Shown: positions 2,646-41,162 of the stretch, piece by piece
Layout: each line of letters opens with the position of its first letter
How positions within the stretch are numbered: the first letter of the stretch is position 1
NCBI GenBank assembly: GCA_001724265.1
Contig: MEDY01000055.1
Coordinates: forward strand, 62,001-126,000
Reading direction: 5' to 3'
Length of the DNA stretch: 64,000 bases
Origin: Rhizaria sp. SCN 62-66
Taxonomy: Eukaryota
Notes under the pieces: model-generated
The model's input: only the letters and a program-made list of their open reading frames with translations
Databases searched by the model: none
What the model was told of the DNA's origin: nothing
Made by a program: the position numbers and the translations under genes

Positions 2646-3290
2646 ATGTCGACGCCCTACGGCCCCGCGCACCTGCGCGCGCCGAGTGCACAGCCGGGCG
2701 ACCCGACATCTTCCTCCAACCAGCCTGACTCGCAGCCCTCCGGCCCCGCGCCGGTCCCATCGGTCCGCGCCTCGCTTTCCGGCGCCGCCGCCAGCCCCGG
2801 TGCACAGCCCCCGCTGCAGCGCGACCTCAGCGCGTCGCCCAACCCCACAGGTCCGCCGCCGGGCCAGAGCACGAGCCGCGCGCGCGGCCGCCGCGTCTCT
2901 TCGGGTGGCGCCGCGTTCCTGGGCTTCGCCGCCAGCGTGGGAGGCAACCCCGCCCCCGCGGCGGGCCCCGGCAGCGGCGGCCTCACCCACAGAGGCGGCG
3001 GCTCGGGCGAGTACCACATCGACCCCTCGGGCGCCTACCTGGGCCTGCCCGCGCTTGCGTATCCCGGCGCGGCGCCCTCGGTCTCCGCCGCGGGCCCCGC
3101 GGGGAGCTACTCGCCGCGCTCGCGGTCGCGGCCAGCGTCGCGCCAGTCGGGCTTTTTGCAGCATCACCAGCAGCAGATGCAGCAGATGCAGCAGATGCAG
3201 CAGATGCAGCAGCCATACCGCCACCCGACGCCGCCGAACACGTATAACTACGCTATGCACGCCGCCGCTGCCGCGAACAACACCAACGCT

Positions 3291-3321
<31 letters not shown>

Positions 3322-4938
3322 TGCATCAGCAGCAACAACAGCAGGCGCCTGCGTTTGCGCACATGATGTCCCTCGGCCTGGCCCCCGGCATGCCTCCGCA
3401 GCAGCAGACACTTGTCTCGCCCACGGGCGCCTTCTACTCGCTGCCCGTGGCCGGCCCCGCGCAGGGCATGGGCGCCCCGCGGCCGCGGTCGCCGTTCCGT
3501 GCCGCAGTCGCCGCCGTCGCCACCAGCAGCATGGGCGCTCACAACAACAATGCCGGCGGCACCGCGGCGGCCGGGACTGCGCAGTACACTGGCGACGCCG
3601 TAGTCTCGAACAGCACCAGCAACAGCAACACGGGCACGCCCCTGATCCACACGAGCACGTCTGCTGGCGCGACGCCGCTGACGATGGGACCCGCACCCGC
3701 GCCCGCCGTCACGATGACCGCCAGCACCACGACTTCGAACACACCGGCCCAGACCCCGGGCCCGCTCAGCGCGGCGATGGCGCTGCCCAACAACGACTCC
3801 AACAGCACCAACGCGAGCTCGCAGCTCAACACCGGCACCAGCGCCGGCGCAGGCTCTGCGGCGATGCACTTGAGTCCGTTCGCGAACCTGCACTGGGGAT
3901 CGCTGCAGCCGCACCCGCACCCGCCGTCGCGGACGGCCACGCCGCGCATCGCTAACGCCGGTGACGCCAGCAGTAGCTCCGGCACCGCGGCCAGCAGCAG
4001 CGGCGGAGGCGGTGGCGGCGGAGGCATGATGATGCAGTCGCCGCCGCCGCCCGCGCTGCTGCACATGATGTCCTACGGCGGCAACCCCCCGGCCGGGTAC
4101 GGCATGATGACGCCCCACGCGCACGGCCACGCGATGCAGATGGGCCACCCCATGGGCGGCGCACACGGTCACCAGATGATCCAGTCCCCCAGCATGTTCA
4201 CGCCCACGCACGCGGGCGCATTCGCGATGACGCACCTGTCGCCCGCGCCGAGCCACCACTACACGGCGTTCCAGCAGCACATGCACCAGCAGCAGATCCA
4301 GCCGGGCTCCGCCAGCGCGCCGCAGCAGACGCACGGGCTCGGCGCCGGCGCCGCGGACCACGCCGACGCGACGCCCGTGCTCAACACGCCGGGCTACACG
4401 CAGAACAACACGCCCGCCGTCGCGAACGGCAACGACGCAGTGCTGGTGGGCATGCCGCTGTCGTTCGCGCACAGCCACGCGCATAGCCAGGCCCACAGCC
4501 AGTCGCACTCCCAGTCGCAGTATCCTCAGCAGGGGCAGCAGTCGCACACGCTGCCTCACGGGAGCAGCGGCACGAGCGAGCTCCCCGGCTCGCACTCTGG
4601 CGACGCTCACAGCCAGCACCACGGCGGCGACGGCGACGCGCTGCCCGGCGAGCATGACACCGCTCGCACTGGCACCACCATGTCCGGCGTCACCGTCACG
4701 TCCTCGGTCTACACGCGCGTGCGCGCGCCCAGCGCCTTTGGTGGCAGCGGCGGCGCGGGCGGCGGCGGCAATGGCGGCAACGGCGGCGGCAGCGGCGGCG
4801 GCGGCGGTTTCGACTCCGTGTCGTCGCTGCCGGCCGGCGTGTCAATCCCCGCCCTGCAGCTGCCCGTCATGTCACCGACGCCGCCCGCGGGCACGGCGCT
4901 GGCCAAGTCCTTCTCGCAGCCGCCGCTGCAGCAGCAGT

Positions 4939-4981
<43 letters not shown>

Positions 4982-7900
4982 CGGCGGTGAAGGATACGGG
5001 ATGCACACCGGCGCGACGATCGGCGACCTGATGTTGCAGGTGCAGGGCGGCCCGTCGACGCTGGGCTCCCCCGGTCTCGAGTCGCTGCCTCAGCCCACGA
5101 CGGCGGTTTCCGGCTTCAACTCGGAGGGCTTCATGACGGCCACGCCATTCGAGCCGCTTACTGGCGCCGGCGTCTTCGGCAGCCCCTACGCCTTGAACCG
5201 TGGGCTCGGCTACGACAACGCGGCCCCCGGCGGTATGGGCTCGCCCGCCGTCGGCCAGGGCTCCTGGGTCGCTAAGTCCCCGCTCCCGGACCCCGTCGCC
5301 GCACTCACGTTGGGCGTCAAGGGCGCCCCGGCCGCGGCGAACCCATTCTCGCCCGTCGCCGCACCGGCCTCCGCGGGCGCGTCGCCGATGCCAGGGCTGG
5401 ACCGCAAGCAGACGCTCGGGGCCGCGCGCACCGGCGCCGACACCGCGCGCCTCGCGGCGCCCGTTACCACCACCGGCGCGGGCCGTCGCGGCCTGTACGG
5501 CCGCCGCCAGAACAACCTGCGTTGCGCCAAGATCCGACCCTTTCTCATCTGCAGCGAGTCAGCTTCTTGCGCTGCAGTCACGAAGTACGGCGCCAAAGAA
5601 CTCGAGCTCTCGCGTGCCGCCGCCCGCGCGCGCGCCTGTGCCATGTCGACGCTATACTCTGTTTTTATGGCGTTTGTGTTCATGGTTGACACAGTGCTGC
5701 TGGCGCTGGACCACCCGAAGTACAACCGGTTCGACTACTCGCCGCCCGTTTTCGGCATTGTCATGGTGTCCTACCTCTTTATTACGGTGGCGTACATCGC
5801 CGAGTTCGTCGTCAACATGCTCGCCTACAGCGGGCGCGCGGCCATCGGCGGCCGGCCCGGCGAGCGGCAGTCTGAGTTCTACGGCTCCTTCTTGGGCTGG
5901 TTCTGCGTCGCCGCGATCATCACGCTCATCGTCGACTGCGTGTGGCCGCTAAACACGCTGCGTTACCTGCCCGCGATCCGCATCGTGCGCTTCTTCCGCG
6001 TTTTCACGTACCTCTCCGCGGTGCGCTCGATCGCGATGATCTCGCAGGCCGTGTCTAAGTCCGTCGGCAGGCTTATCCCGCTCTTTATCGTGCTGCTGCT
6101 GCTCATTCTCGTCTTCGCGTCTAACTGGACTCTGGCTTACGACACCACGTTCACGCGCCGCTGTCTGCTCACTCCGGAGGGCATCGCGATCGCGAGCGAC
6201 TCCACGGACCCACGCTTCGATGCCATCCAGGTCCAGTTCGCGGTGGAGCAGGCGCAGCGGTGCGTGACGCGCGCGGGCCAGTGGTCCGTGGCGCCCGGCC
6301 GTCTGTGTCCGTAGTACTTCGAGTGCGTCAACGACGCGCCGTTGTCGAGCATCTACGACTCGTTCAGCAACGTACTGCTGTCGTCCGTGGTCGTGTTCCG
6401 CATCGTCGTCATTGAGTCGTGGAACTCCATCATGTACGACATGCAGGACATTTACAACTGGATTCCCGTCGTGCTTTGCATCGTGCTCATTTTCATCGGC
6501 AACTTTTTCCTGCTCAACTTCGTGGCCGCCGTCGTCGTGAACGAGTTCCAGAACCTCGTCGCCGAGCTCTACGTGCAGCAGGCGCGCTCCTCGCAGCGCG
6601 GCTTCGACGAGCTCCGCGAAGTCATCATCCAGATGCTATCCAGCGAAGGACTCTTCCGCGACTTCCCCGTGCTTGGCTCCACTGGCGTGCCCGTCATGCT
6701 GCACCAGTGCGCCACGGGCAAGGCGCTCGCGGGCTTCCTGCTCAAGTCGGAGATCTGCACGTCGCGCAAGGACGCCGTGCGCATGCTGCACCGCATGCTG
6801 TCGCTGCGCATTTTACACGAGGTCTCGGCCGCGGGTGTGGTGCAGCCCAGCGGCAGCGGCGGCATGTATGAGGTCAAGTTCTTCACCGATGCGACGCACT
6901 TTTACTCCTTCGAGGGTTCCGACGAGCCGGACGAGAACATGCCGCCCGCGCTGCAGCAGATCATCCGCTCCATCCTGCTGCCCATCAAGCAGCTCATTGC
7001 GGAGCTCGCTGCCAAGCGCGCCGCCGCCGTCGCTGCGGGCGCTGCGGGCGCGGCTGCCGCGGCCGCTGCGGCCGGCGGGCCCAACGCCGCGCTGATTGCG
7101 GCGCAGGCCGCACAGGCCGCCGCGGCTGCAAAGGCTGCGAATGCCGCCGCCAAGGCCGCCAAGGCCGCTGCTGACGCCGCGACCTCCGCCGTCGCCCCCG
7201 CCGACGCCGAGGCGACCGCGGCCGCCGCTGCCACAGCTGCAACCGCCGCCTCGGCCGCCGCGGCAGAGGCCGAAGCTGCTGTCGCCGGCACTGCTCCTGC
7301 CACTGCGATGACAACCGCGCACCCAACAGCCTCCGCGCCCACCGGCACCGGTGCTGGCCACGGCCACGGGCTCGGGCTCGGCCTCATGTCGCCCGCCGAG
7401 CTCACCGCCGCCGCCAGCGCCGCGGTCTCCTCAACCGGCGGCGCGAAGCCCGAGCTCGGCACCGGCGCGAACGGCGAGAGCACCGCGTACACGGTGCCGG
7501 GGCTGGCGCTGGGCGGGATCCCCGCGAACCTCGGCGTCGGGCTCGGCTCGGAGGGCCTTGTCCCCGCGCAGACCGACCACATGCACTTCGCGGGCGCGAT
7601 GCCCGGCTCGGGCGCTGCGGGTGGCGACGTGTCCAATGGACAGCAGCAGCTGGACCAGCAGCAGCAGCTGCTGCAGCAGGAGCTTGACGGCGGCGCCATG
7701 ACGCAGGCGCAGTTCGACGAGCAGTACCAACACTTCTACCAGCAGCATCTGCAGAACAACCTCCGCGCCGCGGGCTTCGATCCCGCGACCGCGGCCGCCG
7801 CCGCCGCCGCGGGCCCCGGCGGCGTCCCCGGCGTTGCCGGGGCGGACGGCGACGCTTCGAACTCGGCGGCTATGATGGCCATGACGCCGTTCGGCGCGTT

Positions 7901-10900
7901 CAGCAGCCCGCCCGCGCTGCAGGCCGCCGCGTCGGTCGGGCTCGGCAGTGTCCAGCGCCATCGCCACAGCCTCTCGCACGGCGGCTACCCGGGGCCCGCG
8001 TTCCACCATCCCGATCTCACCACGGCCTTCAACGCAGGCGCCGGCGCGGGCCAGCCGGGCGGGTACTACACCCCCGGCCACGGCAGCGGATCCTTCACGA
8101 CCCCGGTCAATGCGCTGGGGCAGCCGCTGTTCCTGACCGCCGCAGTGCCTGCGCAGCAGCCGCCGCCGTCGGCGCGCAGCCACCACGTCCCGGCCGCGCA
8201 CACCGGCGCGGAACAGTTCGGCGACGACGGCGACACGTTCCAGGGCCCCGGGGCTGGCCTCGGGGCCGCCACCCCGCGCGCGCACGGCGCAGCCACCCCG
8301 CGCGCGCACGGCGCAGCCACTCCGCGCCTAAGCTTTGTCACTGGCACCGGCTCCACGCTAGTGTCGGCGACGCCGCGCTACGGCCCCGGCGGCGTGCCGC
8401 AGACCCCGCGCGCGGGCATCATGACACCGCGCACGGGGGGCGGGACGCTGCCGCCGCAGACGCCGCGCGCTGGGGGCGGGGCGCTGCCGCCGCAGACGCC
8501 GCGCGCGGGGACTATGACGCCCCGCGCCGGCGCGATGACGCCGCGCGCGGGCGGAATGACTCCGCGCGCGTCCGGGATGCTGACGCGCGGCGAGACCTTT
8601 ACCACGCGCATCCTGCACCCTGCGCCGCTGTCGCTGGCGCAGTCCGCGCAGTCGCAGGCGCAGGCGCAGCAGCAGCCTTTGCAGGGCAGCACTGTGGAGG
8701 ACGAGCGCGCGCGCTTCTTCGCCGCACCACAGCCGAGTCCCCGCGCGTCGCAGCGCAGCCACGCCCACGACGATGGGCTGGATCCCGCTGCCGGCACGAG
8801 CGCTGACGCCACAGAGCCGATTCCTACGTTTCACCCCATGGGCTCACGCACTGTCGACGTCACGCGCACGCCGCGCGGCGCCATGCTGCATCAACAGCAG
8901 CAGCAGCAGCAGCAGCAGTTCGGTTTGGTGCCTATTACATTTAACGTTCCCGTCACGACCTCCGGCTCGGCGCCCATCGACGGCGCTACCGACCCGTCTC
9001 TGACCGCCGCGGTCGCCGTGGCCGCGGGCGCCACGGCCTCGGCCTCTGGCTCGGGCATGCCGTCTGCGCGCCGCCGCTCTAACAGCACGGCCCCGACGCC
9101 CGGCACCGCCCGCCGCCGCCTCTCCGGGCTGTCCGCCGACCCCGCCGCGCTCGCCGCCACCAACAACAACAGCACCGGCAGCGCCGGCGGCGGGAACCCC
9201 AGCGGAGGGTTCGTGCCGCCGCCCCTGGTGCACGGCGCGTCCGCACGCGGCGGGCTCGGCAGCGCGGGCGCCAGCGTGCGCAACCTCAACGGGCTGGTCG
9301 CCGGCCCCGCTGGCCCCGGGTTCGTGCCGCCGCCGCTGCTTGCGCAGGGCAGCCGGCTGGGCAGCATGACGCCGGGCCTACGCACTCCGGGCTACGGCCA
9401 GCCGCAGGTACCTCAGTCGCCGTCGCTGGGCGCGGGCGGATACATGCTGCCGCTGCACTCGGCCGCCGTGGCCGCCGCGGGCGCGTCGTTCGTGGCCGTG
9501 AGGGGCCCCAACGGCGTCGTGTTCGTGCCTAGCTACGGCCCACCGCAGGGCTATGAGCTCGCGGCGCAGATGAGCGCGGCGCAGATGGGCGCGGCGCGCG
9601 CGCATAGCACGACGCCGGGCGGCCTGTCGCGCAGCCTCGCGCAGGGCGGCAGCGGGCCTAACGGCACGCCGGGCGTGCCGGGCACGGGCCGCCGGTCCAT
9701 CGCGCTCTCTGGCGGGCCCACTGGCGGGGCGCCGGGCAACGCGGGCGCCGTGTTTGGGAGCAAGGCGCCTTCGCCCCACAGCGCACTGAGGCGCATGAAC
9801 AGCTTAGGCAACATGTACCACCAGAACTTGAACGATCCTATGGTGATGCAGCAGCAGCAGCAGCAGCAGCAGCAGTATCAGCAGTATCAGCAGCAACAGC
9901 AGTCGGCGATGCAGGGTGGTGACCGCAACCGTTTCTTTGCTCCGGCAGCAGATGCCCTCGACAATAGTATCTCGAGCAGCAATGGCAACGGACCGAATAA
10001 CAGCAACACAGGGAACCTTAGTCTTAACACTGGCGGCTCTGCCCATGTTGGTGTCACTAACAACAACAACCACAACAACCCAAGCAGCAACACCGACAAC
10101 GACTCTGTCTCGCACCACGGTTCTGAGCACCACAGCATCGCCCCCAGCAACGCCACGCTCGGCGGCACGAACACGCACGGCCCCGCAATCGACCGCACGG
10201 GCTCACTGCGCGTGCTCTCGCTCGCGCGCGGCTCCGTATCGACGCCGCGGCACAACTTTGCCCCCGCGCCGCACATGCCCAGTCCCGCGCTCGGTACGCC
10301 CCGCAATTTGGCTGCCGCGTCCGCCGCCGCTGCACCAGCCGCCCCGGCGGTGACTGCGAACAACGCGAGCAACGACACCGGTGCGGCGCGCAATCGGTCG
10401 CCGTCGAGCACGCTGTTCACGATCGCCAACTCCAACACCGCTTCGAACACCAACGCCAATGCGGGCGCGTCTCCGGTCAGCGGCTCGGGGGCTAACGCGC
10501 CCGAGCGCGGCTCGCTGCACAGCAGCCCCAACGCTATGCTGCGGCGTGTCAGCAACGCCTCGCCCACGCCGCCCTCGACGACGATCGCGGGCGCGCTGTC
10601 ACTCAACACGGCCGCGCCGCCTCTGGCCGCCTCGGGCGGGGCGACGCCCGCGACCGATAACTCGACCGCGACACCTCAGTCTCAGCAGCAGCAACAACAA
10701 CAGCAACAACAACAACAGCAGCAGCAGCAGCAACAGCAACAGCAGCTGAGTCTGTCGACCTCCGTCGAAGCGTCCGCGCCTGCGCCGACGCCGCAGTACT
10801 CGCCCGACGTCGCCGCGACGGACGAGGACGACGCCGTGCGGTACAACTTCACGCCCGGCGACGGCGACGGCGATGGACGCGGTGGCGACTCGTTCCAGGA

Positions 10901-13900
10901 CTCAGATGACAGCAGCACCTTCAGCGCGAGCGCCAGCTACACGTCCTCGCATTCGTCTTCGTCCTTCACTGCGATGAACGCCAACATGTCTCCCGCGGCT
11001 GCTGTCGCCGCCGCCGCGCTCGCCGCGCAACAGCTGTCAGGCGGCGCTGGCCCCGCGGCTGACAGTGTGCGCGCGCCGTCCCCCACCTCGCGCTCGCCCT
11101 CGGCCAACTCGGGCCCTGTGGTGCGGCTGCGCCCGCGCCCGCGCTCGCACAAGAGCTCGCGCCAGTCTGGCGCCTCGGCGGGCGGCAGCGCGGCGTCGCG
11201 CTCGCACTCGCACGCGGTGGCGCTCATGAGCATGTCGCCCGTGCCCGAGCAGCCCGAGTCGTCGGAGGACACGGCGCGCCGCCGCACCTCGCACCGGCCC
11301 AGTCGCCGCAGCGGGGCTTTCTCCACGAGCATGATGTTACCTGACGGCTCCGTGCTGGCGCCCGCGTCCTCGGCCCTCGCTGGTTCGAACAACGGCAGCA
11401 GTCATGACGCTGCGGGCGCGGGCGCCAACGCGCGCAGCACTTTCCCGCGCTCTGCGTTCGCGCCCGCCTCGCCGCAGCGCATGGTGGCGTCGCTGTCACC
11501 GTCGATGCAGCAGCAGCAGCGCTCGCTGCAGGATCATCAGCAGATGCAACAGCAGCAGCTGCTGCTGCAGCAGCAGTATCAGCAGCCGTACGCTCGCACT
11601 CCCATCGTGCCCTCGTCCGCTACTTCGTCAAGCTCCGCTGCATCTTCATCGTTCACAGTCACACAACAGCCGCAACAGCAGCCACAGGCCGACCAAGTGC
11701 CTGTGATCCCGCTGCCGGCCCGCATGGCGTCTCCGTCCCCGTACAACCCCGCCATGCCGCACGCCGGCGGCCCCATGTCGCCGCCCATGGCAGGCATCGC
11801 GCTGCCGCTGCCACCCTCGCGCATGCGCTTCGCATCTCCGGCGCCCGGCGCGCAGCCCTCGTCCACGGCCTCCGTGGCCGCGAGCGCGTCGTCGGCCTCA
11901 TCGGTCGCGGCCGGCGCCCCAGCTGTTGCGCCTACCGGCGCCGGCGGGGCGCCGATGTGGGGCTCCCCGCTCGCGGGCCCGACGGTCGGCGTGCGCACGC
12001 TCAGCGGCTCCCACAGCGGGCTCACCCCGCTCGCGCCGGCGCTTTTCTCCCCCGCGGGCCCCGGCGAGCGCGGCACACCCACGCTCTCCGCGGCCGGCGG
12101 TAGCTTCGTCGCCGGGTCGCCGCAGATGTCGGGCTCGTCCGTCTCGCGCATGACCCGCGGCGACAGCGGCAGCCTCAGCGTGGCCTCGATGACCTCCCCG
12201 CCCTCAGCGCCCGCCTCGGCGTCGGCCGCCACGCTCGCCGTCGGTAACATCGCCACCGTGGGCGCGGGCGTGCCGCAGCGCCTCGGCCTCCCGCACACCG
12301 TGGGGCCGTCGCTCGCGGGCGCGTCCCCGTTCACCAGCCCCGGCCCCGGCTCGGTCGCCGGCACGCTCTCATCCTCGGGCGGTACGGGGGTCGCGCACAG
12401 CCACGCGGGCTTCGCACTGCACCACGCCAGCGGCTCCAGCGGCGCGGCCGGCACGGCCACGCACTCGGGCGCCGTGCCGCACTCGGCGGGCTTCGCACCC
12501 GCGTCCGTGTCGATGGGCTCGCCGCCCGCGATGTTGAGTGTGCGCACCGACATGGGCGGCGCCATGTCCCCGCTGCCCATGCACAGCCAGGGCCACAACG
12601 CGGGCGCACTTGCCGGCGCCGGGAAGCCTAACGGACTCGTGTTCGGGCGTGGCAGCACCGGTGGCAATATGCTTTCGCACGCGCACTCTCAGGGTGACGT
12701 GTTCGCAGCCCCCGGTGCCCATTCTTCGTCCAGCCTGTCCGGCAACGGCACCAGCATTGCCGCCGGCACGCCCGCCACTGGCACGCTCCCCGCCGGCCGC
12801 GTTGGCGCCGGCGCGGCGGACAACGCGCGCGGCCGGCCCCGCAGCATCACGCGCGCGTCCCCCGGCCCCGCGGGCTCCGAAAACGGCGGCTCCCCGCTTG
12901 CGCCGGAGCTCCGCGTGCTCCCCGTGTACGCGGGCGAGTATGGCGGCCACGTCTTCCTCGGTATCGCGGCCGGCGCGCACCCGGCGCCCAAGTTGGCGTC
13001 CACCGCGGGCAACAGCGCCGCGAGGCGCGGGCACAACAGCACCGGCGACGGCGCCGCGGCCCCGCCCGTGGACGCCGCGGCCGACAACAGCCAGCGGCGC
13101 GCCGCCGCGGCCGCCGCAGCCGCACTGGTGAGCACGAGCGACGTCACCGCGCGCAGCCGCTCTAGCGCCACGGCCAACGGTGCCGCCGGCGGTGTTGGCG
13201 GCTTGCCGGCGGGCGCAGGCCCGGACTCGCCCAGCTCGACCTTCTCTGGCGGGTCCAAGCCGTCGGTGAGCGCGACCTCGGTGTCTGCGACCACGCTGTC
13301 GTCGTCCACCGGTACAATGTCGACCACAACCACCACCAACACAAGCTCTGCGACCGGTGTGGCCGCCGGGCGCGTGGCTGGCCCCGGCGGCGCGCAGATG
13401 TCCACCCACGCCAACGCTGCCAACGCTGCCAGCAGCACCGCGGCTGCGAGCGGCAGCGCGGGCGTCGGCGCACACCGACTCGTCTCCGCGTCGCCGTTCC
13501 GTCCGTCGCTGTCCCCCGTGCACACGACTGCGCCGCCGACCTCGCTGCAGTCCGCCAACGCCGGCCCCAGCTCCAGCGGCAGCGTGTCCGTCACCGGCCC
13601 TGGCGCGCAGGGCTCTCCGCTGGGCTTCGGCGCACACAACACATCGTCGTCGCGGTCTTCCTCGTCCTCGCCCGTGCCCAGCCCCACGCTGGCGATGCCG
13701 CCCGCCGCGGGCAACACCGCGCTCCCGCCCTCGGGCCTGCCCCCGCGCGGTTCTATCTCTGGCGCGCCACCGCTGTCTCTCGCTAGCAACAGCCAGGCCC
13801 CGCCCGCGCGCGGCAGCTTCTCTGGCGGCGCGCACCCGACCGCACTCAGCCCGGCGCCGCTCGTCGTATCAGTGATGCCTCCTCCGCCCGCGCAGTCTCA

Positions 13901-16900: not shown

Positions 16901-18370
16901 CACGTTTGCGAGCAGCTCGCTGCAGTACTCGACGCATGCGGTGCAGACTATGCCTGGCATGGGCTCCGAGTCTGGCGTTTCGGTCGATCACGAACACGAC
17001 GGACACAACACCAGCGGCAACGCTAACAGCAGCACGCACATGGGCGAGCAGCGCAACCTGCAGGCTGCTCGCGGTGACGCGCCGCCGCTCATGGTCACTT
17101 TGTCGACCAACAGCACGTCCGTCGCCACGCCCGCAGGCCAGCCCGGACCCACGGCCCCGTATTCCACCGATGCCGCCTCGGGCGCTGCTCCGACGGCAGG
17201 ATTTCCCAACCCTCGCCTCCAGGCCGCCGCGACGCGCAAGTCGCTGAACTCGACCATGACGGGCGCTTTCCCGTTCGTCAACACGAGTGCGGGTTATAAC
17301 GCTCCCGCAACTGGCCCCAGCTCCCCGATCAACGCGAACGAGGCGCTCCCACCCGCGGGCCGCGCGTCGTCGTCGTCCTCGAGCTCCGGCGTCAAAACAG
17401 GCACCGTCTCCGGCAGTGCAGGCGGCCGCGTTGGTGCGCGTGCGAGTGCGGGCGCCAAGACGCTTGTGGACGAGGACGGCAACCACTCGATCAACATTGA
17501 GATGGATAAGCAGCCGTCCGTGGTGACAAGCGAGCTCAACCACCCGTCGCTCGCGCACTCGCAGTCACTGTTCAACTACCACCCCGAAGCCATGGTGGCC
17601 AGCAACGTCGGCGCCACCGTCAGCAAGGGATCCCCCACTGGCATCGTGTATCACCGCGGCCAGCCCTCGTCGCGCACTGGCGCGCGCTCTTTCCCCGCCG
17701 GTGCCCCCGCGCCTCAATACGGCGGCGTGTCGCCCACGTCGCTCGCCGCGGCCTCAGGTGCGTCTGCGTTCAGCGCGGCCAGTGGCGGCGTGCAGCCGAC
17801 TGTGCAGCGCCTCCCTTCGCGCGCGCCCTCGAACACGGCCTCCGTTGCGGACTCTTCCACTGGCTCCGGCGGCACTGGCGCCGAGGTCGTCGTCAATGCG
17901 CGCATCGCGAACCTCGTGCACGCCGGCGCGGGGCCGCGCGGCAAGGTCGGGTTGCAGGCGTCGACGCCGGACCTGCTTTCGCTGCTGAGCTCTGTGGTCA
18001 ACCCCGCGGTCAAGATCGTCGACTCGACGGCCGCGGCGGAGTTGTGGCGCAAGCAGGTCACCTCGGTGCTCTCTTCGCCCGCCGCGACGCTCTCGGTGGC
18101 GAGCAGCAGCGGCGAGTCGCGCAGCACGCTCGCGTTCAACACCCCGTCGGTCGGGCCTATGCCGTCGTCGCACGGCGTCAACCCACAGCCGCAAGCCGGA
18201 CTATTGTCAAGCGTGCCCGCGACGCCGCCGGTGGCCCTGGCCGCCGCGCCCCTCTCGAGCGAAACCAGTGGCGACGTGACTCTGGGCTCGTCCGACCCCA
18301 CTGGTTCGAATAGTTCGCCTGCTGTTGCTCATGTTGAACCCACGCAGAGTGCGCAGGAGCCGCTACAGCA

Positions 18371-18407
<37 letters not shown>

Positions 18408-30400: not shown

Positions 30401-33400
30401 CGCCGCTGCCGCTGCCGCCTCTGCAGCCGCTTTGACGGACTCCACCGCAACGGCCAGCAAGGATGTCGCGGCGCTCGCGCTGGCCCGGTCCCGCGGCCGC
30501 CGCTCCTCTCTGCCGGTCGTCCACGACGGCCGTTATGAGCACATCCTGGCCGCATCGGAGCACGTGCACCGCACGCACGACTTCACGCAACCGCCGCCGC
30601 ACCCGCATACGCATGCGGCTGCAGCTGCTGCGGCCGCCTCGACGCAGGCGTCGCTGCAGGGCACCGCGGCGGCCGTTCGCAGCGGCCTCTCCCCCCCTGA
30701 GAAGGGCGCACTGCTGTCCGTGACCGCTTCGCCCGCCGCCAATGCTGCCGCGCGCGCGGGCCGCTCCCGCGTTGCCGGGCGTACCGCGCAGCGCCTGCTG
30801 TCGCTCTCACCCGCCGCGCGCGCCTGGGTCGGCGCCGACGCCCCGCTGCCACTGGGCACCGTCAAGCGCGCCTTCGCGTCCCCGAGCGCGTCGCCGGCGC
30901 CGGGCGCGGGCACGTGGGCCGAGTCCGCGCATCTCCACGGGCGCAGGCTCGGCAAGTCCGCTGCGAACTCGTCGAGACAAGCCGCTGGTGCGGGCACCGG
31001 CGGCGTCACCTCCGCGCGCGCAATCTCCGCCGCCGCGAGAACGGAGCGCGGCGGGTCGACGCTGGCCGTCGGCACGCTCAAGCGGGAAGAGTCGGAGCGC
31101 TCGCAGCTGCGGCGCGAGCTGGAGCTGTTGTCTTCGCGCCGCGCGAGCGGTGGCGCGGCCGGCGTCGCCGCCGCCGTAGCCGCCGCGTCCGCCGGGCTGG
31201 TCGCGGGCGAGGACGATGCTGCGGGCGCCGTCGGTCGCGACGACGACGACGACGGCGACGACGAGAACCTCACGCAGCTGCACGACCTGCAGCTGCGCTG
31301 TCTGTTCGGCACCAAGAGCTGGGCGCTGCAGATGGCGACCGCAGACCGCCAGGCGACGTTCGACGACATGCTGCTCGAGATGCGTCGCTTGCAGCGCGTG
31401 CCCGCGGGCGTCAACCTCGCGTCCCTGCGTCCGCAGAAAGTCAAGCCGCACCCCGTCACGACGCGCCGCGCAGCGGAAGTCGCCTCTGCTGCCACTGCGG
31501 GCGCGGTGACGATTGGCTCGACGACTGATGCCCCTGCAGGCAAGAAGTCAAGCCGCGTCGTCCCGATGCCCGATGGCACTGCTGCAAACGCCGGGGTCGA
31601 CTACGACGACAACGAGACGATCTTGTTCGACGACGACCAGGCGCTTATCGACGGCACTGACGACGAAGACGAAGACGAGTATGACAACTACTACTACGAC
31701 GACAAAAACCCCGCCGCACATTCACTCAGCCAGTCCGCTGTCGCGGCCCACAACGATCAGACGGGCGACGACTCGCACTCGTCCTCGTCGTCGACGTTCA
31801 ACACGCAAGCGTTCCCCCAAGGCCCGCCCGCATCGGTGCCGTACTTGCCCTCGCCGTCGCCGGGTCCTAGCTCCACGCACTCAACGTCGCGCGCGAGCTC
31901 CTTCGGCTCGCTCACCGCCGTGGGCGCGCGCCCGCCGCTGCCCAACGGGCCCCACACGGGCAGCTCGTCCGCGGTGGGTGGCGCGACCGCTGCGACGACT
32001 GGTGGCGCTGTAACGGCCGGTGCTTCCCCGCCGGTACCCGCCAAGGTCGGTCTGCTGAAGCGCATCAAGCGCGGTTTCCTCTCGCTGCTCGGCATCAGCC
32101 AGCGCGACCGGGACCGCGAGCGCCGCGCCGCCGGGGCCCGCGCCGTCGCGCCCGCTCCCGGTGCAGGCGAGGTCCAGATGACAGCGGCGGCGCAGACCGC
32201 GCCGACACTGACGCAGCAGTCCTTGTCGAGAAACCCTGCCATGCGGCGCCGGCGCCAGGCCATCGCGGTGCCCAGTAACATTCCCGCGCTGCCGTTGATG
32301 GACGTCCCGCTGTACGCCGCCACCGTGGGCGCCGCCGCTAAGGCTGCCGCGGCGAGCACCGCCATTGTGTCCGTCCCGGGCGGCGGGTCCACTGTGTCCG
32401 TGACGGGGCCCGTGGTGATCACCGGCGCGCCGCCGGGCGTGCTGGCCGCGTCCTCCGGCGTGTCCTCCGTTCACCACTTTGCGCAGCCTGCTTCACAGTC
32501 CGACACATCCGCGTCCTACGCCGCCACCAGCGCGGTCACGGCTCCAATCAACCTCCACGCGCGCCCCGCCACATCCGCCGCGGTGGCGGGCACCGCGCCC
32601 ATCGGCCCCGGTGTCAGCTCGCAACTGGGCCTGGCAGCGGCTCCGACCATCACGGCGACAGCGTCGTTGATGCAGGGCCAGAACCGGTTCTCGGTCCCAC
32701 CTGTCACCGACTCTGGGGCCGGCGCCGCGCCGCCGCTGCCGCCATCAAGCTCGACCACGGGTCCGTCCTCCGCCGCCGTCTCCGCGACCGCGGCCGCGGG
32801 CACGGGGGCGGGCGCGCCGTCGACTGATAGGCAGACCTCGAGCCGCACGAGCGCTCAGCGTCTGTCACAGCACCAGCTGCAGCAGCAGCAGCAGCAGACG
32901 TCGAGCCGGCTGTCGGGCGAGCGCAACAGACTCCTGCTGCCCGGCTCGCAGCCGGGTTCGGCGCACAGCACGCCCGCGCAGCCGCGGCGCAGCCCCGTGT
33001 TCGACTTCGGCATGCGGCAGCCGGGCGACGTGATCATCCCGTCCCCCGGCGGCGTCGCCAAGAAGTTCCCCCTGGTCCCGCCGCCAGCGCTGTTCCCCGC
33101 GCTGTCCACGGTGCTGTCGCCGACGCACATGGGCGAGGAGAGCGACAACGCCAATGGCCGCGGACTCATGCGCGTCGAGTCGCTGCCAGAGAACGTGCAG
33201 CAGCACCTTGCCGCTGGCTCTAACGACGCTCCCAACGCGGGCCCTGACCCGGCATCTGCTGCGCCTGTGCCTGTGCCAGCGTCAGACGCGGCCGCACTGG
33301 CGTCTGCAGCTGCTGAGTCGGTCGCCATCATTCCTACACCGCTGCCGTCCGCGCCCGTGTCTGCGTCTGGACAGGCCGGGGCGCGCCCGCCACCGATGGC

Positions 33401-36400
33401 GCGCCAGCCTTCGGACTCGAGCTCCCACGCCAGCTCCGCCGCCGCATCCTCCACCGCGACGTCCACGGCCGCCGCGCTGCGCCGGCCCGACGGGTGGGAG
33501 CGCCGCCGGACCGAGCGCGCGGCCCTGCTTGCGACGGCCTCGGGGCGCGACCTGTTGGGGCTCGTGCCCGCGCATGGCGACGACCCCGGCTCGCCGGAGC
33601 TCACAAGACACGTTCGCATCACGCCCATGACCGCCGCGGCGGCCGCGGCAGCCGCCGCCTCGCAAGCCAGCGCACCGCAGCAGCTGCCGGTTAGAGCCTC
33701 GCTCCCTATCTCCGTGTCTGGGGCCGGGCTGGCGGCGCCTCCCGCGAGCAGCGGTGCGCTGCCCGCCACTGCCTCCGCGGTGACGACGGCCGCGCAGACC
33801 GCGGCGGCGACTGCGGCGGCGACCGCGGCGGATGGCAGCGACTCTGTCGAGCACTACGCATACAAGCTGAACCGCCCCGAGTCGATCGCAAGCAGCGGCA
33901 CGGCCACGACGGTCGCCACTGCCTCGGTCCTGGCCCCCGCGGCTGCGTACGCCGCCGCGACGGGCGTGGCCCTTGGCGCGCTGGGCTCGCCCACGCCAGT
34001 CGGCTCCGGCACGGCGGCCGGGATTTCTGGCGGCGCGCTGACGTCGAACGAGGACGCCGCGGCTACGTTGACGAGTCCCATGGATGACAACGGTACGCCG
34101 ACCGCGCCCGTAGTGACCATGTCGCCCGACACGATGCGCCAGGCCGAGCGTCAGCAGCGCCGCCAGCGCCGCGCGCTGCTCGTCAACGCGCAGGCGCGCG
34201 CCACCGCGGCCGCCGCCGTTGCTGCGGCCGCCGCGGCCGCTGCCGCATCGACCCCAACGGGCGGCGAGGCAACGCCGGGCCTCGACCCCGCCACTGCGAA
34301 CGCGCGCGGCAGCATCAGCGCCGCGGGCGGCGGCACCGCGGGCACGGCTTCCGGCGGTTCCACGGTGCTGACCGCAGCTGCGGCGGTCCCGGCCGCGTCG
34401 TCCATCGGCCCAGTCCCGGCCAGCTCTCCTGGCTCGCGCCCCACGCCCGTAGTTACGGCCACACCGACCTACAGCGCCAACGTCGGCGCGGGCCCGCCGC
34501 CGCTGCTGGGCAGCCGCGCCAACAGCGTGTCGGCCTCGGCCGTCGCCGCCGCCACCGCCGCAGCCGCCGCCGCGGCCGGCTCCGGCGGCGCGCCGCTGCC
34601 CCCGCGCGAGACGGCCTTCTCGCTGCTGCAGTGGCAGCGCCGCAGCTCCGCCGCAGGCTCCGTCGCGGCCTCCTCGGTCGCTGGCGTGCTCGCCCACACG
34701 GCGGCGCCCGCGGCCGGGCCCAGCGGCAGCGTGGCGGGTTCGCTCTCGCTCAGCGCTGCCGCCGCTGCGGCCGCCGCAGCTGCGGGCCAGCTGAGCCCCG
34801 CGTCGACGGGCGCGACGCCGCACACGACCGGCGGCCTCAGCGCCGGCGGCGACGGCGCAGCCATCAACAGCCCGCTGTCGGCGCCCGGCGGCGGCGCGGG
34901 GTCTCCTTTCATGCGCCCGCCGCCGCTGGTCTTCGGGCTGCCCGCGTCCACCACGGCGCCCAGCGCGCTGGGTCCCGCGGGCGCCACGGCGGGTGCGCTC
35001 GCTGCGGCAGGGCCCGGCGCGTCTGCGTCGATGACTGCGGGCGGCACTCCAAGCTCACCCAGAGCCCAGGGGCCCGCGAGTGTGCCCATCGGCCCCGTCG
35101 GCGCACACGCGCAGGCGCATGCTCAGGCACAGACACAGGCGCAAACGCTGGCTTACAACGGCAACGTTGCTGTGACAGTCACTCCGCCGGTGTACGGCTT
35201 CTCGAACTTCGCCAGCGTGAACACCGGCGCTGGCGCGCTCACCGCCGGCGACTCGCCCGCGGTGGCGATCGGCGAAGCCACGCCGCAGCTCACGGCGTCG
35301 CCGATGCCCGTGCGCTCGCTGCACGCCGGCTCCGGGACTCCGGTGCCCGCCAGCGGCGCCGGCAACGGCAACCAGCTGCAGGGCCAGGGCCAGGGGCTGA
35401 GCACGCGCGTGCACTCGTCGAACGCGTCACCCGCGCTCAACGCCGCCACAGCTGCGGCCGCCGCGGCTGCGCGTCTGCAGCAGTACCGCGCTCAGCTCTC
35501 GCAGTTGGGCAACTCTGGCAGCTCGACGATCAGCTCGCCGCACAACTCGACGCACGAGACAATTCGCACCATCGTGGCCGCCGCGCAGGCCGCAGCCGCG
35601 GTTCGCGCTGCTGCCGCGGCGATGGCCAACGGCCCTGGCGCGCTCCCGCCAGGCCACGACGAGGGCGAGGAGGACGCGCACGACGACATCGTGCGCGCGG
35701 GCGTCCGCAGCGACCGCGACGCGCCCGGCGGGTCCGGCGCTGCCGGTGGCGGCGGCGGGACGGGCACTGCCGCCCACTCCCCCGCCGTCACGGCCTCCTC
35801 TTCCCGCGCCCCCGCATCATCCGCAGCCACGGCGGCGACCAACGCCGCGCTGTCCGCGCTTCACGCCGCCACGGCCGCCGCCAGCGCGTCCACGGCGTCG
35901 GCCGCGCCCTCTGTCGCGTTCGGCCGGCCCCGTACCGGCGGCTCGCGCGTGCAGTCGTCGCACTCGTCGCACCACACCGCGGCCTCGTCCTCCGCCGCGC
36001 CAGCGGCCGGCGCCGCCCCTGCGACGGGCGCGGGCGCCGGCATGTGGCTGCCTCCTGCGAACGCACCGTCCATCATCGGCGGCGGCGGCGGCGGCGGCAA
36101 CAGTCCTGGCACCGGCGCCGCGACTGTGGGACCGAGCTCCTCGTACTCGATGCGGCCGAGCCCCGCGTCGGGCCCCACGCCCGCGACGCCCGCGTTCACG
36201 GCGAACACGAGCACGAGCGCCAATACACCCGCGTTCCCGGCCGCGCCCGTGCCGCCGTCGGCCGCGTCCGTACCCGCCTTCTACAACAGCATGCCGCAGC
36301 AGATGCCGTCGCGCCTCGCGCCGCTGAACCCGTACTCGGCCATCAACACCGCCGGCTCGCCGCTGCCCGCCATCACCGTCTCGGCCGCCGCGCCGCACGT

Positions 36401-39400
36401 CATCGGCGGCAGCGCCCTGCTCCCAGTCGCGCTGCCGGGTGCGTCGGCCGCGGACCTCAGCCGCGGGTCGCCGCACCAGTCGCCGCTTAACTCGGCGCGC
36501 GTGCGCACACAGACCAGCAGCGGCAGCCGCCACCACACGGCCGCGGACGCCTACTCCGGCCCGGCCAGCGCCACCCTTGGCGCGGTCCCTGCGGGCGCTG
36601 CCGGCGCGATGGGCGCTCTCTCTGCGCGCGGTCGCTCCGCCGCCACTAGCACCACCACTGCGCCGGTCACGCCCACCAAGTCCTCCGCGCCCCTTTCGGC
36701 CAGCGGCGGCGGCAGCGCGACGGCGCCGCGCACGCACACGCAGCACCACCACAGCGCGCGCGCCCCTGGCACTGGCGCCGGCGGCGCTGGCGGGGCGGGG
36801 CTGAGTCCCGTCCGCGTCCCCGGCTCCTCGGCCAACGCCGCCGGTGTCGCCATCGTCTCGCCCACCCGCGGCGCCAGCAACAGCATTGGCGGCCTGCGCC
36901 CGCCCCCGTCGCCGACGACCGTGAGCTCCGCCGCCGCAGCCGCAGCAGCCGCGGCCGGCGTGCCGGGCTCGGTGGCCAGCGGCGCGCGCGGCGCGTCCCC
37001 GCGTCCCCCGCGCTCCCCGGCCGCCAACGCGAGGCAGACGCCGCCGGGTCATTCCCCCACGGCCGCCGGCCCGGCGCTGGCCGCCGCGGCGGGGGCGAGC
37101 GGGAGCCCCGGCGTCACCGGCGGCGCGCAGTCGCTGTCCCCGGGCGGCGCGCGCTCGACCTCGGCGGCCTCATACCTGCAGCCGGCGGCCACAGCGCGGG
37201 CCTTCCAGCCCTCGTCGCGTGACCCCGCCGCGGGCGCGGGCGCCAACGGCACCAACGGAGATTTAAGACTTACTCTTAACTCGCCCGGCGCCGCTGCGGC
37301 TGTCGCAGCTGCCGCTGCCGCTGCGGCCGCGGCTGGCAGCGGCGGCGTCAGCGCGCGCAACCCCTCGTGCTCCGCCGGTCACGTGTCGCTGGCCGACAAC
37401 GTCTACCGCGGGCGCAGCGGCGTCGCGAGCGCGGTGCCCAGCTCCGTGTCGGGCGTGTCCTCGCTGCCGCCGGCCTTTGCGGGCGCGGTCGCGATGCTGA
37501 TGCAGGCCGACTCGGTGGTCAACTCGGCCTCAGCTACCTCAATGTCGGGTCCCTCGCACATCACGTCCCCCACACCCGGCAGCAGCTCCGCGCACCCCAA
37601 CTCGTCTTCGTCCTCCTCGCTTGCGCGCGACGCGGCGGGCGGCGCGGCGGTGACCGCGGGCAGCACCGCCGCCAGCGGCAGCTACCACAGCTCGGGGCCC
37701 GCGCACGGCGCGCTCGGCGTCAACGTCGGCAGTGGTGGCTGGCTGGGCTCCCCGTCGCATCCGCAACAGCTGCACAACAGCAGCTACAGCTCCGGCGCCG
37801 GCGGTGCCAACTACTACCAAGGCGGCAGCGCGCTGGGCGCCGCGGTGTCCGCGTCGCCGCCTGCGCCAGGGATGACGGTGAGCACGCCCAAGGGCAAGAG
37901 TGCGCTTCACCCGTCCGGCGCGCCGCTGCCGCCGCACTCGTCCACAGGCGGGCCCATCGTCGGCCCGGCCGTCTCGCCGTACCTGCTGCCTCAACGCCCG
38001 CGCGGGCTCTCGACGCTCACGCAGGTCACCTCGGCCTCGGGCACGTCGGGCTTCACGCTCAGCTCGCTCATCTCGTCCGTGACGTCGATCGCGTCCAACT
38101 CGACGCCCACCTCGTCCTCGGGCGGCAATACGCAGTCGGACCCGCCCTCGGCCACGCACCAGCAGCAGGCGATGACGGGCCCGCTGTCGCCGGTCAAGGC
38201 GCTCAGTCCCGGCGTAGCGCCGGAGATCTTTTCGCCCCTGTCTAGAAACACGGATCCACAGGGCGGCACCAGCAGCAGCGGCCCCGCCAGCGGCGCCGCC
38301 TCGGCCTCCGCGGGCGGCACCGGTACTGGCGATACGAGCTCCAGCGTGGCCGAGGCTGGCGACGCGCACAGCCACACCGGCGGGCTCACGGGCCGCAGCG
38401 GCCGCGGCAGCAGCGTCGTCGCCGTCGGTGGCGGCCACGCGCACGGCCACGGTCACGGCGCGGGCACTGGCACGGGCTCCCAGCTCGGCAGCCACACCTC
38501 GGTCATCCCGGGCGCGCCTGTGACCGTGGGCGGCGGGCTCAACCCCATCGCGGCCGCCGCCGTGGTCTCCGCGAGCGTGGCCTCGGGCCTCGGCACCAGC
38601 GCCAGCACCAGCAGCTCGGGTCCCTCGGTCCCCGGCTCCGGTGAGCGCAACGGCCGTCCGCTCGGCGGCCAGGCGCAAGCCCAGTCGCAGTCGCAGGGCC
38701 AGAGCTTCGCCGGCTACGGCCAAGGGTTCAACGGCGCTGGCAGCGGTCACTTCGCCGGCTACGCGGCCGTCACCATCGGCGGCAGCCTTAGTCCCCCACT
38801 GATCGGCGTCTCGTCGCCCCACGCGCACATCAACGGCGCCGGCGCCGGCGCGCACCACGCTGGCTACGGCGCCGGTCAGGCGAGCCACCTCACGCTGCCG
38901 GGCCACGTGCGCGTGCCCTCGACGTCGTCCTACCGCTCCGCCACAGGCTCCGCCGCCGGGTCCGCGACCGCGGGCCACAGCGGCGACTCGGCCCCGCACC
39001 CGCTGCTCTTCGCAGCGCCGTCGCTGCTGAACCAACCGCTGGCGCACGTGAACACCAGCTCTGCGGGCGGGCTCTGGTCCGACCGCTCGGAGCGCCAGCC
39101 GGGACTGCTGTCGTCGACGCACTCCGCCACGCAGTACTTCGAGCCCAGTGTCACCAACAGCACTGGCGGCGGCGGCGGCAGCGTGCAGCGGGTGCTGACG
39201 CCCAACCACAGTTTCGGCCACGGTGGTGGCAGTGCGAGTGGAGGCGTGCCGCTGTCGTACATCGGCTCCGGTGGGCTGGGCATGCACTCGCTCGCGCAGT
39301 CGCAGGCGCACTCACTGCACCTGCACCACCACGCGCAGCCCGAGGCGACGTTCACGAACCCGCTGTACGTGTCTGGCAGCACCTACTCGGCCGTCGACCA

Positions 39401-40190
39401 CAGCGTTTTCAACCATCCTGTGTCGACCCCCAACGGCGCGCCCACGGCGCTCACGCTCGCGCCCAGCGCCAGCGCCAGCACGCTGCTCTCGGGCCGCAAC
39501 GGTGCCGGCAGCAGCAGCGCGGCGGGCAGCGCGGCGGGGCACGGCCACGTGCTCGCCTCGCCCCTCGGCTCCGCGGTCCCCGCCGTGAGGAGTGGCAACA
39601 GCGCAGTGGCGACTACCACCGGCATTGGCGGCGCGGGCATTGCACTCGCGGCGTCCCCGGCGCCCTCGGCGCAGTCGTCGTCGTACGGCGCGGCGACGCT
39701 GCTGAGCCAGCGCTCGCAGGGTGCCACAAACCGCGGCTTCGCGTCCCCCGGCGTCGACGGGCTCGAGGGCTCGGGTGGCGCGCTGTCGCCGTCGCTGCGC
39801 ACGCCCATCATCACACGCATCGGCTCCGGCGGCGTTATACCGCCCTCGCACTCGCTCCTGCTCGCACAGGGCGGCGCTGCCGCTGCGGGCGCGGGCGCAG
39901 GCGGCAAAACTAAGCTCGGCGGCGCCGCTGGTGCCGCTAGATCCGGCTGGGAGCCAGTGAGCGCTGCAAATACAAACAACGCATTCGGCCGTGCCGCCGG
40001 CTCGGGCGGCTTGGGCACGACCGCCGGCGCCGCCGCGGCTGCTGCAACTGCCGCCGCTGGCGGCGCTGTCGGCGAGGGCGAGACTGTGAGCAGACGCGCG
40101 ACGCTGACAGCGGCCTTTGCCACTCTGGGCAGTATGCAGGGAGGCGCGAGCAAGCCCGGGAGTGACCGTGACGGCGGGCCTGCTGCGTAA
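2646..40190 (+). CDS. Giant four-domain (4x6TM) voltage-gated cation channel alpha subunit, Cav/Nav superfamily, ~12,514 aa if the internal TAG at 6312-6314 is decoded
   Basis: ORFs 2646..6314 and 6342..40190 are in the same frame, with a single TAG as the only stop between them. Four 6TM repeats with S4 and pore-loop motifs lie at ~5646-6548, ~20560-21845, ~25120-26055 and ~26220-27040. Also present: a short III-IV linker, a C-terminal EF-hand-like segment (HFDEFVEIWAMFD...LPTLLRAI), pre-IQ (GSVSFKAVLYALVR) and IQ-like (YATLRMQRAFLRRK). Ends TAA. Start codon uncertain. Confidence 0.85.
4941..4979 (+). repeat. Pure (CAG)13 polyglutamine microsatellite; further CAG/CAA polyQ tracts near 10682-10745 and 18367-18450
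   Basis: Read directly from the sequence. Confidence 0.9.
5646..6548 (+). other. Channel repeat I (S1-S6), interrupted by an in-frame TAG in the S5-P turret
   Basis: S4 LRYLPAIRIVRFFRVF; turret GRLCP*YFEC; pore SFSNVLLSSVVVFRIVVIESW; S6 IFIGNFFLLNFVAAVVVNEF, resembling Cav/Nav IS6 (IFLGSFFxLNLxLAVV). Confidence 0.85.
6630..6915 (+). other. DEP-like domain at the start of the channel I-II linker
   Basis: HQCATGKALAGFLLKSEICTSRKDAVRMLHRMLSLRILHEV...FFTDATHFYSF fits the DEP pattern (CFxGxELVxWL...SRxEAVxLxxxLLxxGxIxHV...FxD...FYxF). Confidence 0.7.
8262..8570 (+). repeat. Coding tandem repeats encoding 11 Thr-Pro-Arg motifs (GAATPRAH, PPQTPRAG, MTPRAG units)
   Basis: Visible directly in the translation; 24-nt and 21-nt DNA repeat units. 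Confidence 0.85.
20560..21845 (+). other. Channel repeat II (S1-S6) with a long S2-S3 insertion
   Basis: S1 ELFEWVSALFVIMYCTCISLY; S2 CTGVFMLEIMIRLLAL; S3 FWESPMCIIDLIHV; S4 FLRLIKLIRLA; pore FNSFWFSLASTLFILFPDNW; S6 LILNQFTLVMVIENF. Confidence 0.85.
25120..27040 (+). other. Channel repeats III and IV joined by a short conserved linker
   Basis: Repeat III: FVRSAWCMLDVII, LARPVRLA, LWSGQLYKCND...C, SFNNIVTSVVSLLKLINFDEW. Linker: FERVKAENDGTNRLSEPQLNWV. Repeat IV: KLFGLGWKQYWGANWNR, NANFASFLVSFVVMMRIATADLW, FLVIPLFTAIVLQS. Confidence 0.88.
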
Positions 40191-41162
40191 GCTAGTGTGA
40201 GCGGCAGCAAGCTTCGGTTTGCTTTTCGGCCGCAGACCGCTCGGTCAAATCGTGTTGGTGCTCGTCCTTCCTCGCAGATGTATGTCATGTTCTTCGAGGC
40301 ACTCTTCCCCGAGTGTCTCACCACTTTATCTTTTATTATTGATGATGATGTCAACAAGTTGTGCGTAGACACATGTAGTAGACATGCACGTCATATCTAG
40401 CATGATATCAATCTAGCATGATTGATGTTTTGCAAACATGTGTTCTATGACACGCATACTTGTGTGACTTGCTGTATGAGATGTTTTCACTGCCATAAGG
40501 ATCTTTTTGGGACTCGCGGCGTGTAACACTCTCAAAACCATATCTTTAGTTTGCATTTTGTTATTTTTCTCCTTGACAACATCTAATTAAAACCGCAGAT
40601 GTTGAACACTCTCTGTAATATCATGATTTATTGTCTCTACGACTGGAGACCTTGTACTTGAACATGTGTGTTTTGCTTTAATACTCGTGCTATATCTGTC
40701 AATATGACAATAATTTAATAAATTAGTATCATTATCTTCCACCCCACGCTCTCGCCGTAAAATGAAATCCACAGCTGCTTGTTAAAACGAATTTGAAGTG
40801 GAGTGTAACATCTGACTCGGCTTAAGAGCTTGCTGCGTTTTTGTGGTCGAGACAAGGGGTCGGTCGGTCTCTGCTTCCGGTGAAGTTAGGCCGCGGCTGT
40901 CGGTCAGTCGCTGAGCCGGGCGCAATGGAGTTCGCAAAACATCGAGTTTCTCATATTCGTATCATTCCGTTGCGATCTCTTTCGTGATTACATGTAGTAT
41001 CCACTTGGACAATGTATTATTTAATTTAGTACTGCATCTTGTGGTCATTAATGCAGTCAATATGCAAGTATGCGGGCACGGCGAAACCGGTCAACGTTCA
41101 GACACTCACCTCCTTTGCTTTACCAATTCAACCACACTATTCATGCGCTCCGTAGACACAAA

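Follow-up and report, generated by a model that had tools for sequence, protein, structure and literature searches.

A Cav-like four-domain channel gene with some 11,000 low-complexity residues and a single in-frame TAG codon from a GC-rich microbial eukaryote

The alpha subunits of four-domain channels normally comprise 1,400-3,000 residues. In some of them the proximal I-II linker carries the alpha-interaction domain (AID), a beta-subunit binding helix with the core GY..WI. A 2018 survey of the four-domain voltage-gated cation channel (FVCC) superfamily (PMC5824947) describes many lineage-specific clades and lone branches with mostly acidic filters, widespread pre-IQ/IQ motifs, some clades with a charge-poor S4, and an AID confined to the clade of high-voltage-activated (HVA) Cav channels. 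The 64,000-nucleotide stretch analysed here (the window; positions 62,001 to 126,000 of contig MEDY01000055.1, deposited as Rhizaria sp. SCN 62-66) carries a gene that fits the picture of that survey. Its frame (2646-40190, + strand) consists of 12,514 codons plus a terminal TAA (40188-40190) in a single exon, with one internal TAG. The product appears to be a lineage-specific, Cav-like four-domain cation channel with an E/D/D/D filter and no AID. This is a genuine single-exon gene in which the N-tail, the I-II and II-III linkers and the C-tail have expanded to ~11,000 low-complexity residues, and the copy in the window is probably a nonsense allele, fixed or segregating, of an otherwise intact gene.

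An earlier note on this DNA had described a single, apparently intronless 37.5-kb open reading frame (ORF) encoding a voltage-gated channel of ~12,500 residues. The start codon at 2646 is supported by an in-frame stop upstream at 2562 and by a rise in GC content from ~42% to ~78% near 2600. Within this 37.5-kb span, each of the remaining five frames contains 80-427 stops (longest open run, 862 codons). When the channel frame is divided into 25 bins of 1.5 kb, the GC content of third codon positions (GC3) is 0.77-0.90 in every bin, even where complexity is low, and that of the first and second positions (GC1 and GC2) is much lower. The frame is therefore coding throughout, far beyond what chance would produce. 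It is broken, however, by a TAG at codon 1223 (6312-6314, +) that the first reading missed. This codon divides the frame into 1,222 and 11,291 open codons, which an ORF listing gives as 2646-6314 and 6342-40190 in the same frame. What stands of the ~12,500-residue channel is the 12,514-codon frame with its four repeats; standard decoding yields a fragment with a computed mass of 125 kDa, not the 1.25-MDa channel (1,252 kDa) that read-through would give. The huge low-complexity regions of the earlier description are evident from composition. The residues A, S, G, P, T and Q make up 60% of the whole frame against 33% of the membrane core, or, by segment, 56-66% of the linkers and tails and 31-34% of the domains. 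The gene also contains many short triplet repeats.

The TAG lies in the loop between S5 and the pore of domain I, within the motif C-P-*-Y-F-E-C. All 25 of the best domain I homologues have a residue in this column (Glu in six, Asp in four), and the C-P-x-x-x-x-C spacing is kept. Because the Cys-to-Cys spacing needs this codon, the TAG is a one-codon substitution rather than an intron or an indel. DNA contigs from runs X2 and X3 cover 5641-7002 without a difference, TAG included. A contig from X4, which belongs to another study and year, covers 6264-6882 with the TAG and a single difference, a single-nucleotide polymorphism (SNP) at 6343. The TAG is real and not an assembly error. Between the window and the sequences from X4 and from the poly(A) metatranscriptome X5 there are five SNPs, two of them synonymous and three non-synonymous, and one 3-nt insertion; the TAG is thus common to slightly diverged strains. 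X2 and X3, although filed under different studies and years, yield identical contigs with equal lengths and depths and are probably one data set filed twice.

The mechanical ORFs of the window end (at 1377, 40190, 42284, 46646, 58616 and 58885) in TAA five times, in TGA once and never in TAG, despite GC3 values of 0.74-0.90; the end at 1377 is intronic, and the corrected tally is four TAA and two TGA. The six genes of the window hold one TAG in ~19,300 codons. A reassigned sense codon is unlikely, given these TAA and TGA stops, a channel frame in which one of 12,514 codons is TAG whereas 503 are CAG and 237 GAG, and the absence of TAG from the interior of the other five ORFs. A small intron enclosing the TAG was rejected because the alignment with homologues runs on without a break and the codon is needed for the spacing of the Cys residues; the frame-keeping GT..AG candidates around it are 27-51 nt long and GC-rich, unlike the two introns of the window. 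A split channel that re-initiates past the TAG was rejected as well, since the first ATG (6432) lies beyond the pore helix and filter. No stable RNA structure was found downstream of the TAG (z = +0.97), and scanning the window for Rfam families and tRNAs produced no hits.

The four six-transmembrane (6TM) repeats of the earlier note are borne out by Pfam Ion_trans matches in four regions, with domain I matched as two halves, and by hydropathy clusters confined to these regions; three weak hydropathy peaks elsewhere are poly-Ala. On the + strand, the N-terminal low-complexity tail (aa 1-~1000; 2646-5645) is followed by domain I S1-S6 (aa ~1003-1305; 5652-6560), which aligns with 25 homologues and whose Ion_trans halves flank the TAG (aa 1003-1159, profile positions 3-145; aa 1237-1305, profile positions 168-237). 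The I-II linker (6561-20522) has 4,654 aa, 65% of them A/S/G/P/T/Q, and leads to domain II (aa ~5960-6405; 20523-21860). A II-III linker of 1,075 aa (21861-25085) precedes domains III and IV, which are joined by a short linker of ~65 aa (aa ~7481-8135; 25086-27050), and a C-terminal tail of 4,379 aa (27051-40187) completes the frame. These measured sizes agree with those first given, including an N-tail of ~1,000 aa. The piece spanning domains II-IV scores 205.8 bits against Ion_trans. The S2-S3 loop of domain II carries an acidic/low-complexity insert of ~170 aa (20800-21250, +).

Aligned to the Cav glutamates, the predicted selectivity filter reads E/D/D/D, from VIESW in domain I, FPDNW in II, NFDEW in III and ATADLW in IV. 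This differs from the E/E/E/E of HVA Cav channels; all four positions are acidic, and function may be alike. Together with the best structural matches, which are to Cav1, the filter fits a Ca2+-permeable channel as first proposed. The description 'voltage-gated' is only partly sustained. The S4 segments of domains I (RxxRxxR plus one) and II (RxxKxxR) have three to four spaced Arg or Lys residues, whereas domain III has two spaced Arg residues and domain IV has one Arg followed by Glu. From this pattern, voltage gating is plausible but not secure.

Bit scores against PDB chains are highest for Cav1.2 (131) and Cav2.3 (125.5), followed by Cav3 (111), Nav (~100 or less) and NALCN (56). The gene resembles Cav1/Cav2 channels (e.g. 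Cav1.2, PDB 8we6) in its four 6TM repeats, its acidic ring, its short Cav-type III-IV linker and, tentatively, an EF-hand-like/GPHH segment and IQ-like motif past IVS6. It differs from them in its identity of ~25%, its E/D/D/D filter, the lack of an AID, the charge-poor S4 of domains III and IV, an IQ-like motif placed ~715 aa past IVS6, and a frame five to six times longer. With Nav channels the gene shares the four-domain architecture, and its C-P-x-x-x-x-C turret motif in domain I resembles the Nav 'CPEGY' motif. Unlike Nav, with its D/E/K/A filter, the window gene has no lysine in the filter, and its Cav-type III-IV linker lacks an IFM-type hydrophobic triplet. NALCN/Cch1 channels likewise share the four-domain architecture and are set apart by the absence of Lys from the filter of the window gene and by the far lower NALCN score. 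Within the FVCC superfamily, the gene has the four tandem 6TM Ion_trans repeats expected of a member, and its coding sequence is interrupted by the TAG.

An exhaustive homologue search over representatives gave 2,975 hits at E ≤ 1e-3. The only close match is P0127, a 6,170-aa protein on a 37,054-nt JGI metagenome contig (1,122 bits, 62% identity); the runner-up reaches 191 bits and 27% identity. The nearest named matches are from Andalucia godoyi, Micromonas pusilla, Papus, Fabomonas, Stygiella and diplonemids, jakobids and diplonemids thus being among them, with 25-29% identity and lengths of 1,120-2,985 aa. As for the length comparison with orthologues, P0127 alone exceeds 3,000 aa among the best 150 of the 2,975 hits. 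A FastTree phylogeny of 121 rows (those 120 of 156 hits that covered both domains, plus the window) and 595 columns, built without labelled metazoan Cav references, pairs the window with P0127 at a starred support of 100. Among sets of at most half of the rows, none that is larger and starred holds this pair, and a long-branch join with P0150 was flagged. The tree yields a sister sequence and no supported clade with any other; without a labelled metazoan Cav in the tree, the lack of a Cav-clade placement signifies isolation and not exclusion. Compared with the named matches, and with the picture that the survey draws from its 277 sequences (PMC5824947), the gene appears to add the giant tails and linkers, a DEP-like segment and the domain II insert. 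A search of open-access text found no paper on giant low-complexity Cav-like channels in protists and nothing pertinent on calcium channels in Fonticula; on stop-codon reassignment it turned up general work only.

P0127 starts at domain II S1 and is therefore probably partial. It is 66% identical to the window in domains III-IV by pairwise alignment, carries the domain II insert at the same position and keeps the S4 charge pattern of domains II-IV. In the same alignment, its linker and tail lengths are similar to those of the window (II-III linker, 879 versus 1,075 aa; C-tail, 4,162 versus 4,314 aa). Eight islands in the C-tail are colinear with P0127 at 54-66% identity (aa ~8644-8691, 8723-8817, 8850-8893, 9364-9424, 9523-9620, 9774-9837, 10103-10154 and 11736-11833), and a 61-aa stretch near aa 11,743-11,803 reaches 79%. 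The low-complexity parts are only 35-41% identical in a gapped alignment. These parts are coding and are retained in the relative. The closest homologue of the RRM gene downstream of the channel gene is 66% identical and is also recorded on a 37,054-nt contig; because P0127 and this homologue appear to share one contig, the locus is suggested to be syntenic. Searches of metagenome contigs with domain I and with domain II as queries found no relative. A protein search with domain I (candidates of 330-1,052 aa) gave no match, probably because low-complexity words crowded out candidates, and a search with domains III-IV for longer relatives returned only six distant animal or unnamed channels.

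Two putative cytoplasmic motifs agree with the Cav-like character of the protein. Directly after IVS6 lies an EF-hand-like/GPHH segment (27084-27200, +; Pfam GPHH, 21.7 bits where the cut-off is 26.8). It is followed by an IQ-like motif recognized by eye (aa ~8850-8893; 29190-29325, +; ...VYATLRMQRAFLRRKI...), which is conserved in P0127. A weak Atlas lead connects this motif to IQ clusters (0.83), and the Pfam search of the channel protein gave no IQ match. Just past IS6, a DEP-like segment (aa ~1353-1422; 6700-6911, +) matches PF00610 weakly, at 24.6 bits (E 2.4e-5) against a gathering cut-off of 32.7, and DEP chains in PDB reach E values of only 0.18-1.3. Its single-sequence AlphaFold2 model is unusable (pLDDT 48.4), and phmmer found the segment in none of 156 homologues. 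The segment occupies the spot past IS6 where HVA Cav channels bear the AID. An AID was not seen in the ~30 residues past IS6, which lack the GY..WI core.

Two neighbouring genes show what introns look like in this genome. The gene at 1-2000 (+), which codes for a protein kinase and has a long insert of low complexity, is interrupted by a 137-nt intron at 1345-1481. This intron has a GC content of 0.32, opens with the donor GTACGT, uses CTAAC as its branch site and closes with 23 consecutive T and AAG. Exon 2 of the gene (1482-2000) aligns to Pkinase positions 177-263 and has TGA as its stop. Because the mechanical ORF 1-1377 extends into the intron, the TAA of that ORF is not a true stop. A SUN-domain gene (Sad1_UNC, 96.8 bits; 43233-46646, +) has an AT-rich, stop-free intron of ~86 nt at ~43381-43466 (GTACGC...ttttcag) that is hidden inside the mechanical ORF. 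No intron-like segments were found in the channel gene, where 60-nt segments below 45% GC occur only in membrane-coding or Asn-rich stretches, runs of eight or more T are absent, and none of the 29 GTACG sites is followed by less than 55% GC.

The poly(A) metatranscriptome X5 provides at least eight colinear contigs among the matches listed, with a total of 3,657 nt and 0-1 differences each. Two lie in the N-tail (3765-4226 and 4387-4740), one in domain I (5750-6311; 562 nt) and five in the I-II linker (10209-10648, 10876-11396, 14792-15287, 17480-17910 and 18677-19067). X5 supports none of the 15 joints listed, beyond which there are 118 more. Joints in the DNA runs X2 and X3 were not used, as their 20-22-nt sides fit repeats or other organisms. 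A conceivable rival is that GC-rich introns free of stops account for the low-complexity stretches, or that the contig was put together wrongly, and that the real protein has ~2,000 aa. None of the DNA and RNA contigs listed covers the stretch from end to end, and DNA contigs break at tandem repeats. Such a reading would nevertheless have to accommodate codon-position bias throughout, RNA contigs colinear inside the N-tail and I-II linker, and the colinear islands and similar tail lengths of P0127. The introns observed in the window are only 86-137 nt long and AT-rich, and nothing like them lies in the channel gene. Misassembly in particular is unlikely because four domains and the IQ-like motif would rarely stay in a common frame across a chimeric join. 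We therefore consider this explanation very improbable, and the absence of introns claimed at the outset is upheld.

The fate of the TAG copy is less clear-cut. Our preferred explanation is that the TAG is a single-codon nonsense change in an extracellular loop of domain I, which would make this copy a loss-of-function or population-variant allele. Several points weigh against our overall reading of the locus. Standard decoding ends after domain I S5, and the ~12,514-residue protein is read from the frame only. The 11,291 open codons past the TAG fit a very recent nonsense change and, equally, continued translation of the gene. X2 comes from the study of X1, the possible source of the window, and gives the same contigs as X3, which leaves X4 as the only clearly independent confirmation of the TAG. 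The X5 RNA library may contain DNA. One of its contigs stops at 6311, the base before the TAG, which hints at a branch, and so a second variant, at T6312; because a de Bruijn contig would stop where reads diverge, this end fits a second allele or an RNA-level change, and at a depth of ~3 it may also be chance. The comparison with P0127 spans domain II to the C-tail, not domain I, the N-tail, the I-II linker or the TAG column. Finally, the five neighbouring genes consist of 49-64% A/S/G/P/T/Q with GC3 of 0.74-0.90, and mutational bias may account for tail length better than function does.

That the nonsense change has already killed the gene, leaving a dead pseudogene whose remainder has not yet decayed, is a narrower form of the nonsense-allele reading and in itself rather unlikely. 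The stop falls within a conserved pore loop, it is present in samples of 2015-2017 and again of 2025, and three of the five strain SNPs are non-synonymous. A dead gene is harder to reconcile with the absence of a second stop or frameshift in 37.5 kb, with a sole indel between strains of 3 nt, with long-term conservation in P0127 and with apparent RNA coverage. Somewhat less probable still is that the cell decodes the TAG through leaky termination, a suppressor tRNA or an RNA-level change, so that the 1.25-MDa channel is made and the stop may throttle its abundance. Decoding would account for 11,291 uninterrupted codons in DNA so rich in repeats that frameshifting indels are expected to arise fast, for a TAG common to two strains, for an RNA contig ending where reads would diverge, and for RNA contigs downstream of the TAG; TAG also ends none of the six window genes. 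Strain divergence is so small, however, that the open downstream frame is weak evidence, and the contig end may be fortuitous. The base after the TAG is T, which is not a known read-through context, and neither a stable downstream structure nor any sign of sense TAG in the ~19,300 codons points to decoding. The fuller proposal that a TAG-recoded, ~1.25-MDa Cav-like channel serves as its own scaffold or tether through flexible cytoplasmic arms of ~11,000 residues with docking motifs and a DEP-like module, with the stop setting its amount, is distinctly unlikely. If made, a channel of 12,513 residues would, to our knowledge, exceed every other ion-channel polypeptide in size by a wide margin. 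A nonsense allele of an otherwise intact gene remains the reading that we favour.

The pore of the intact protein would be pseudo-tetrameric and have E/D/D/D as its acidic ring, which would make it permeable to Ca2+. The S4 segments are charged in domains I and II and degenerate in III and IV, and the channel would probably be sensitive to depolarisation. The Cav-type proximal C-terminus, EF-hand-like and then IQ-like, is suggestive of calmodulin control, and the long flexible cytoplasmic arms may use their conserved islands as docking motifs. A scaffold or condensate role for the tails, as the earlier note envisaged, is purely speculative. Because all five neighbours are equally low in complexity, such expansion may be a genome-wide habit, and the tails could be neutral by-products of GC and repeat bias that are tolerated rather than functional. 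The many short triplet repeats and the low identity of the tails to P0127 agree with this possibility. On the other side stand eight colinear islands, which extend up to 3,600 residues past domain IV, and tail lengths that agree to 4-20% in two species with a core identity of 66%. Moreover, among the best homologues, 149 of 150 (other lineages; of 2,975) have no more than 3,000 aa. Since islands and tail lengths are conserved in P0127, the tails seem to matter, which argues against pure drift, and we regard a wholly neutral origin as possible but doubtful.

The other genes of the window share the character of the channel gene. Its five neighbours in the six-gene count are the kinase and SUN-domain genes, an RRM gene and two long ORFs. 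The RRM gene encodes a nucleolin-like protein with two RRM domains (41070-42284, +) and contains a 75-nt tandem repeat at 41295-41452. Apart from the homologue on the apparent P0127 contig, its named matches are to Fonticula alba (40%) and early fungi, which are too distant for placement of the organism. Two long low-complexity ORFs at 48150-58616 (+; 3,488 aa) and 58885-62568 (-; 1,227 aa) have no Pfam match and are convergent, with ~270 nt between their stops. Short AT-rich introns, a coding GC content of ~70% and low-complexity proteins throughout the five neighbours characterize the source, which is a GC-rich, intron-bearing, uncultured microbial eukaryote from bioreactor or wastewater metagenomes. 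Runs X6-X13, in which its share is small, do not enter into this statement on habitat.

Because of a single TAG, this locus reads as 'probably a nonsense allele' and not as the 'largest channel known'. The practical warning is that very long 'open' frames in GC-rich eukaryotic metagenome contigs need a codon-by-codon check. For the channel family, a core joined to ~11,000 extra residues, with tail lengths and islands kept in two species, amounts to a natural experiment on the roles that cytoplasmic linkers and tails can take on in Cav-type channels, with tethering, scaffolding and phase separation as the candidates. The gene also bears on the upper size of a membrane protein that a cell can make and traffic.

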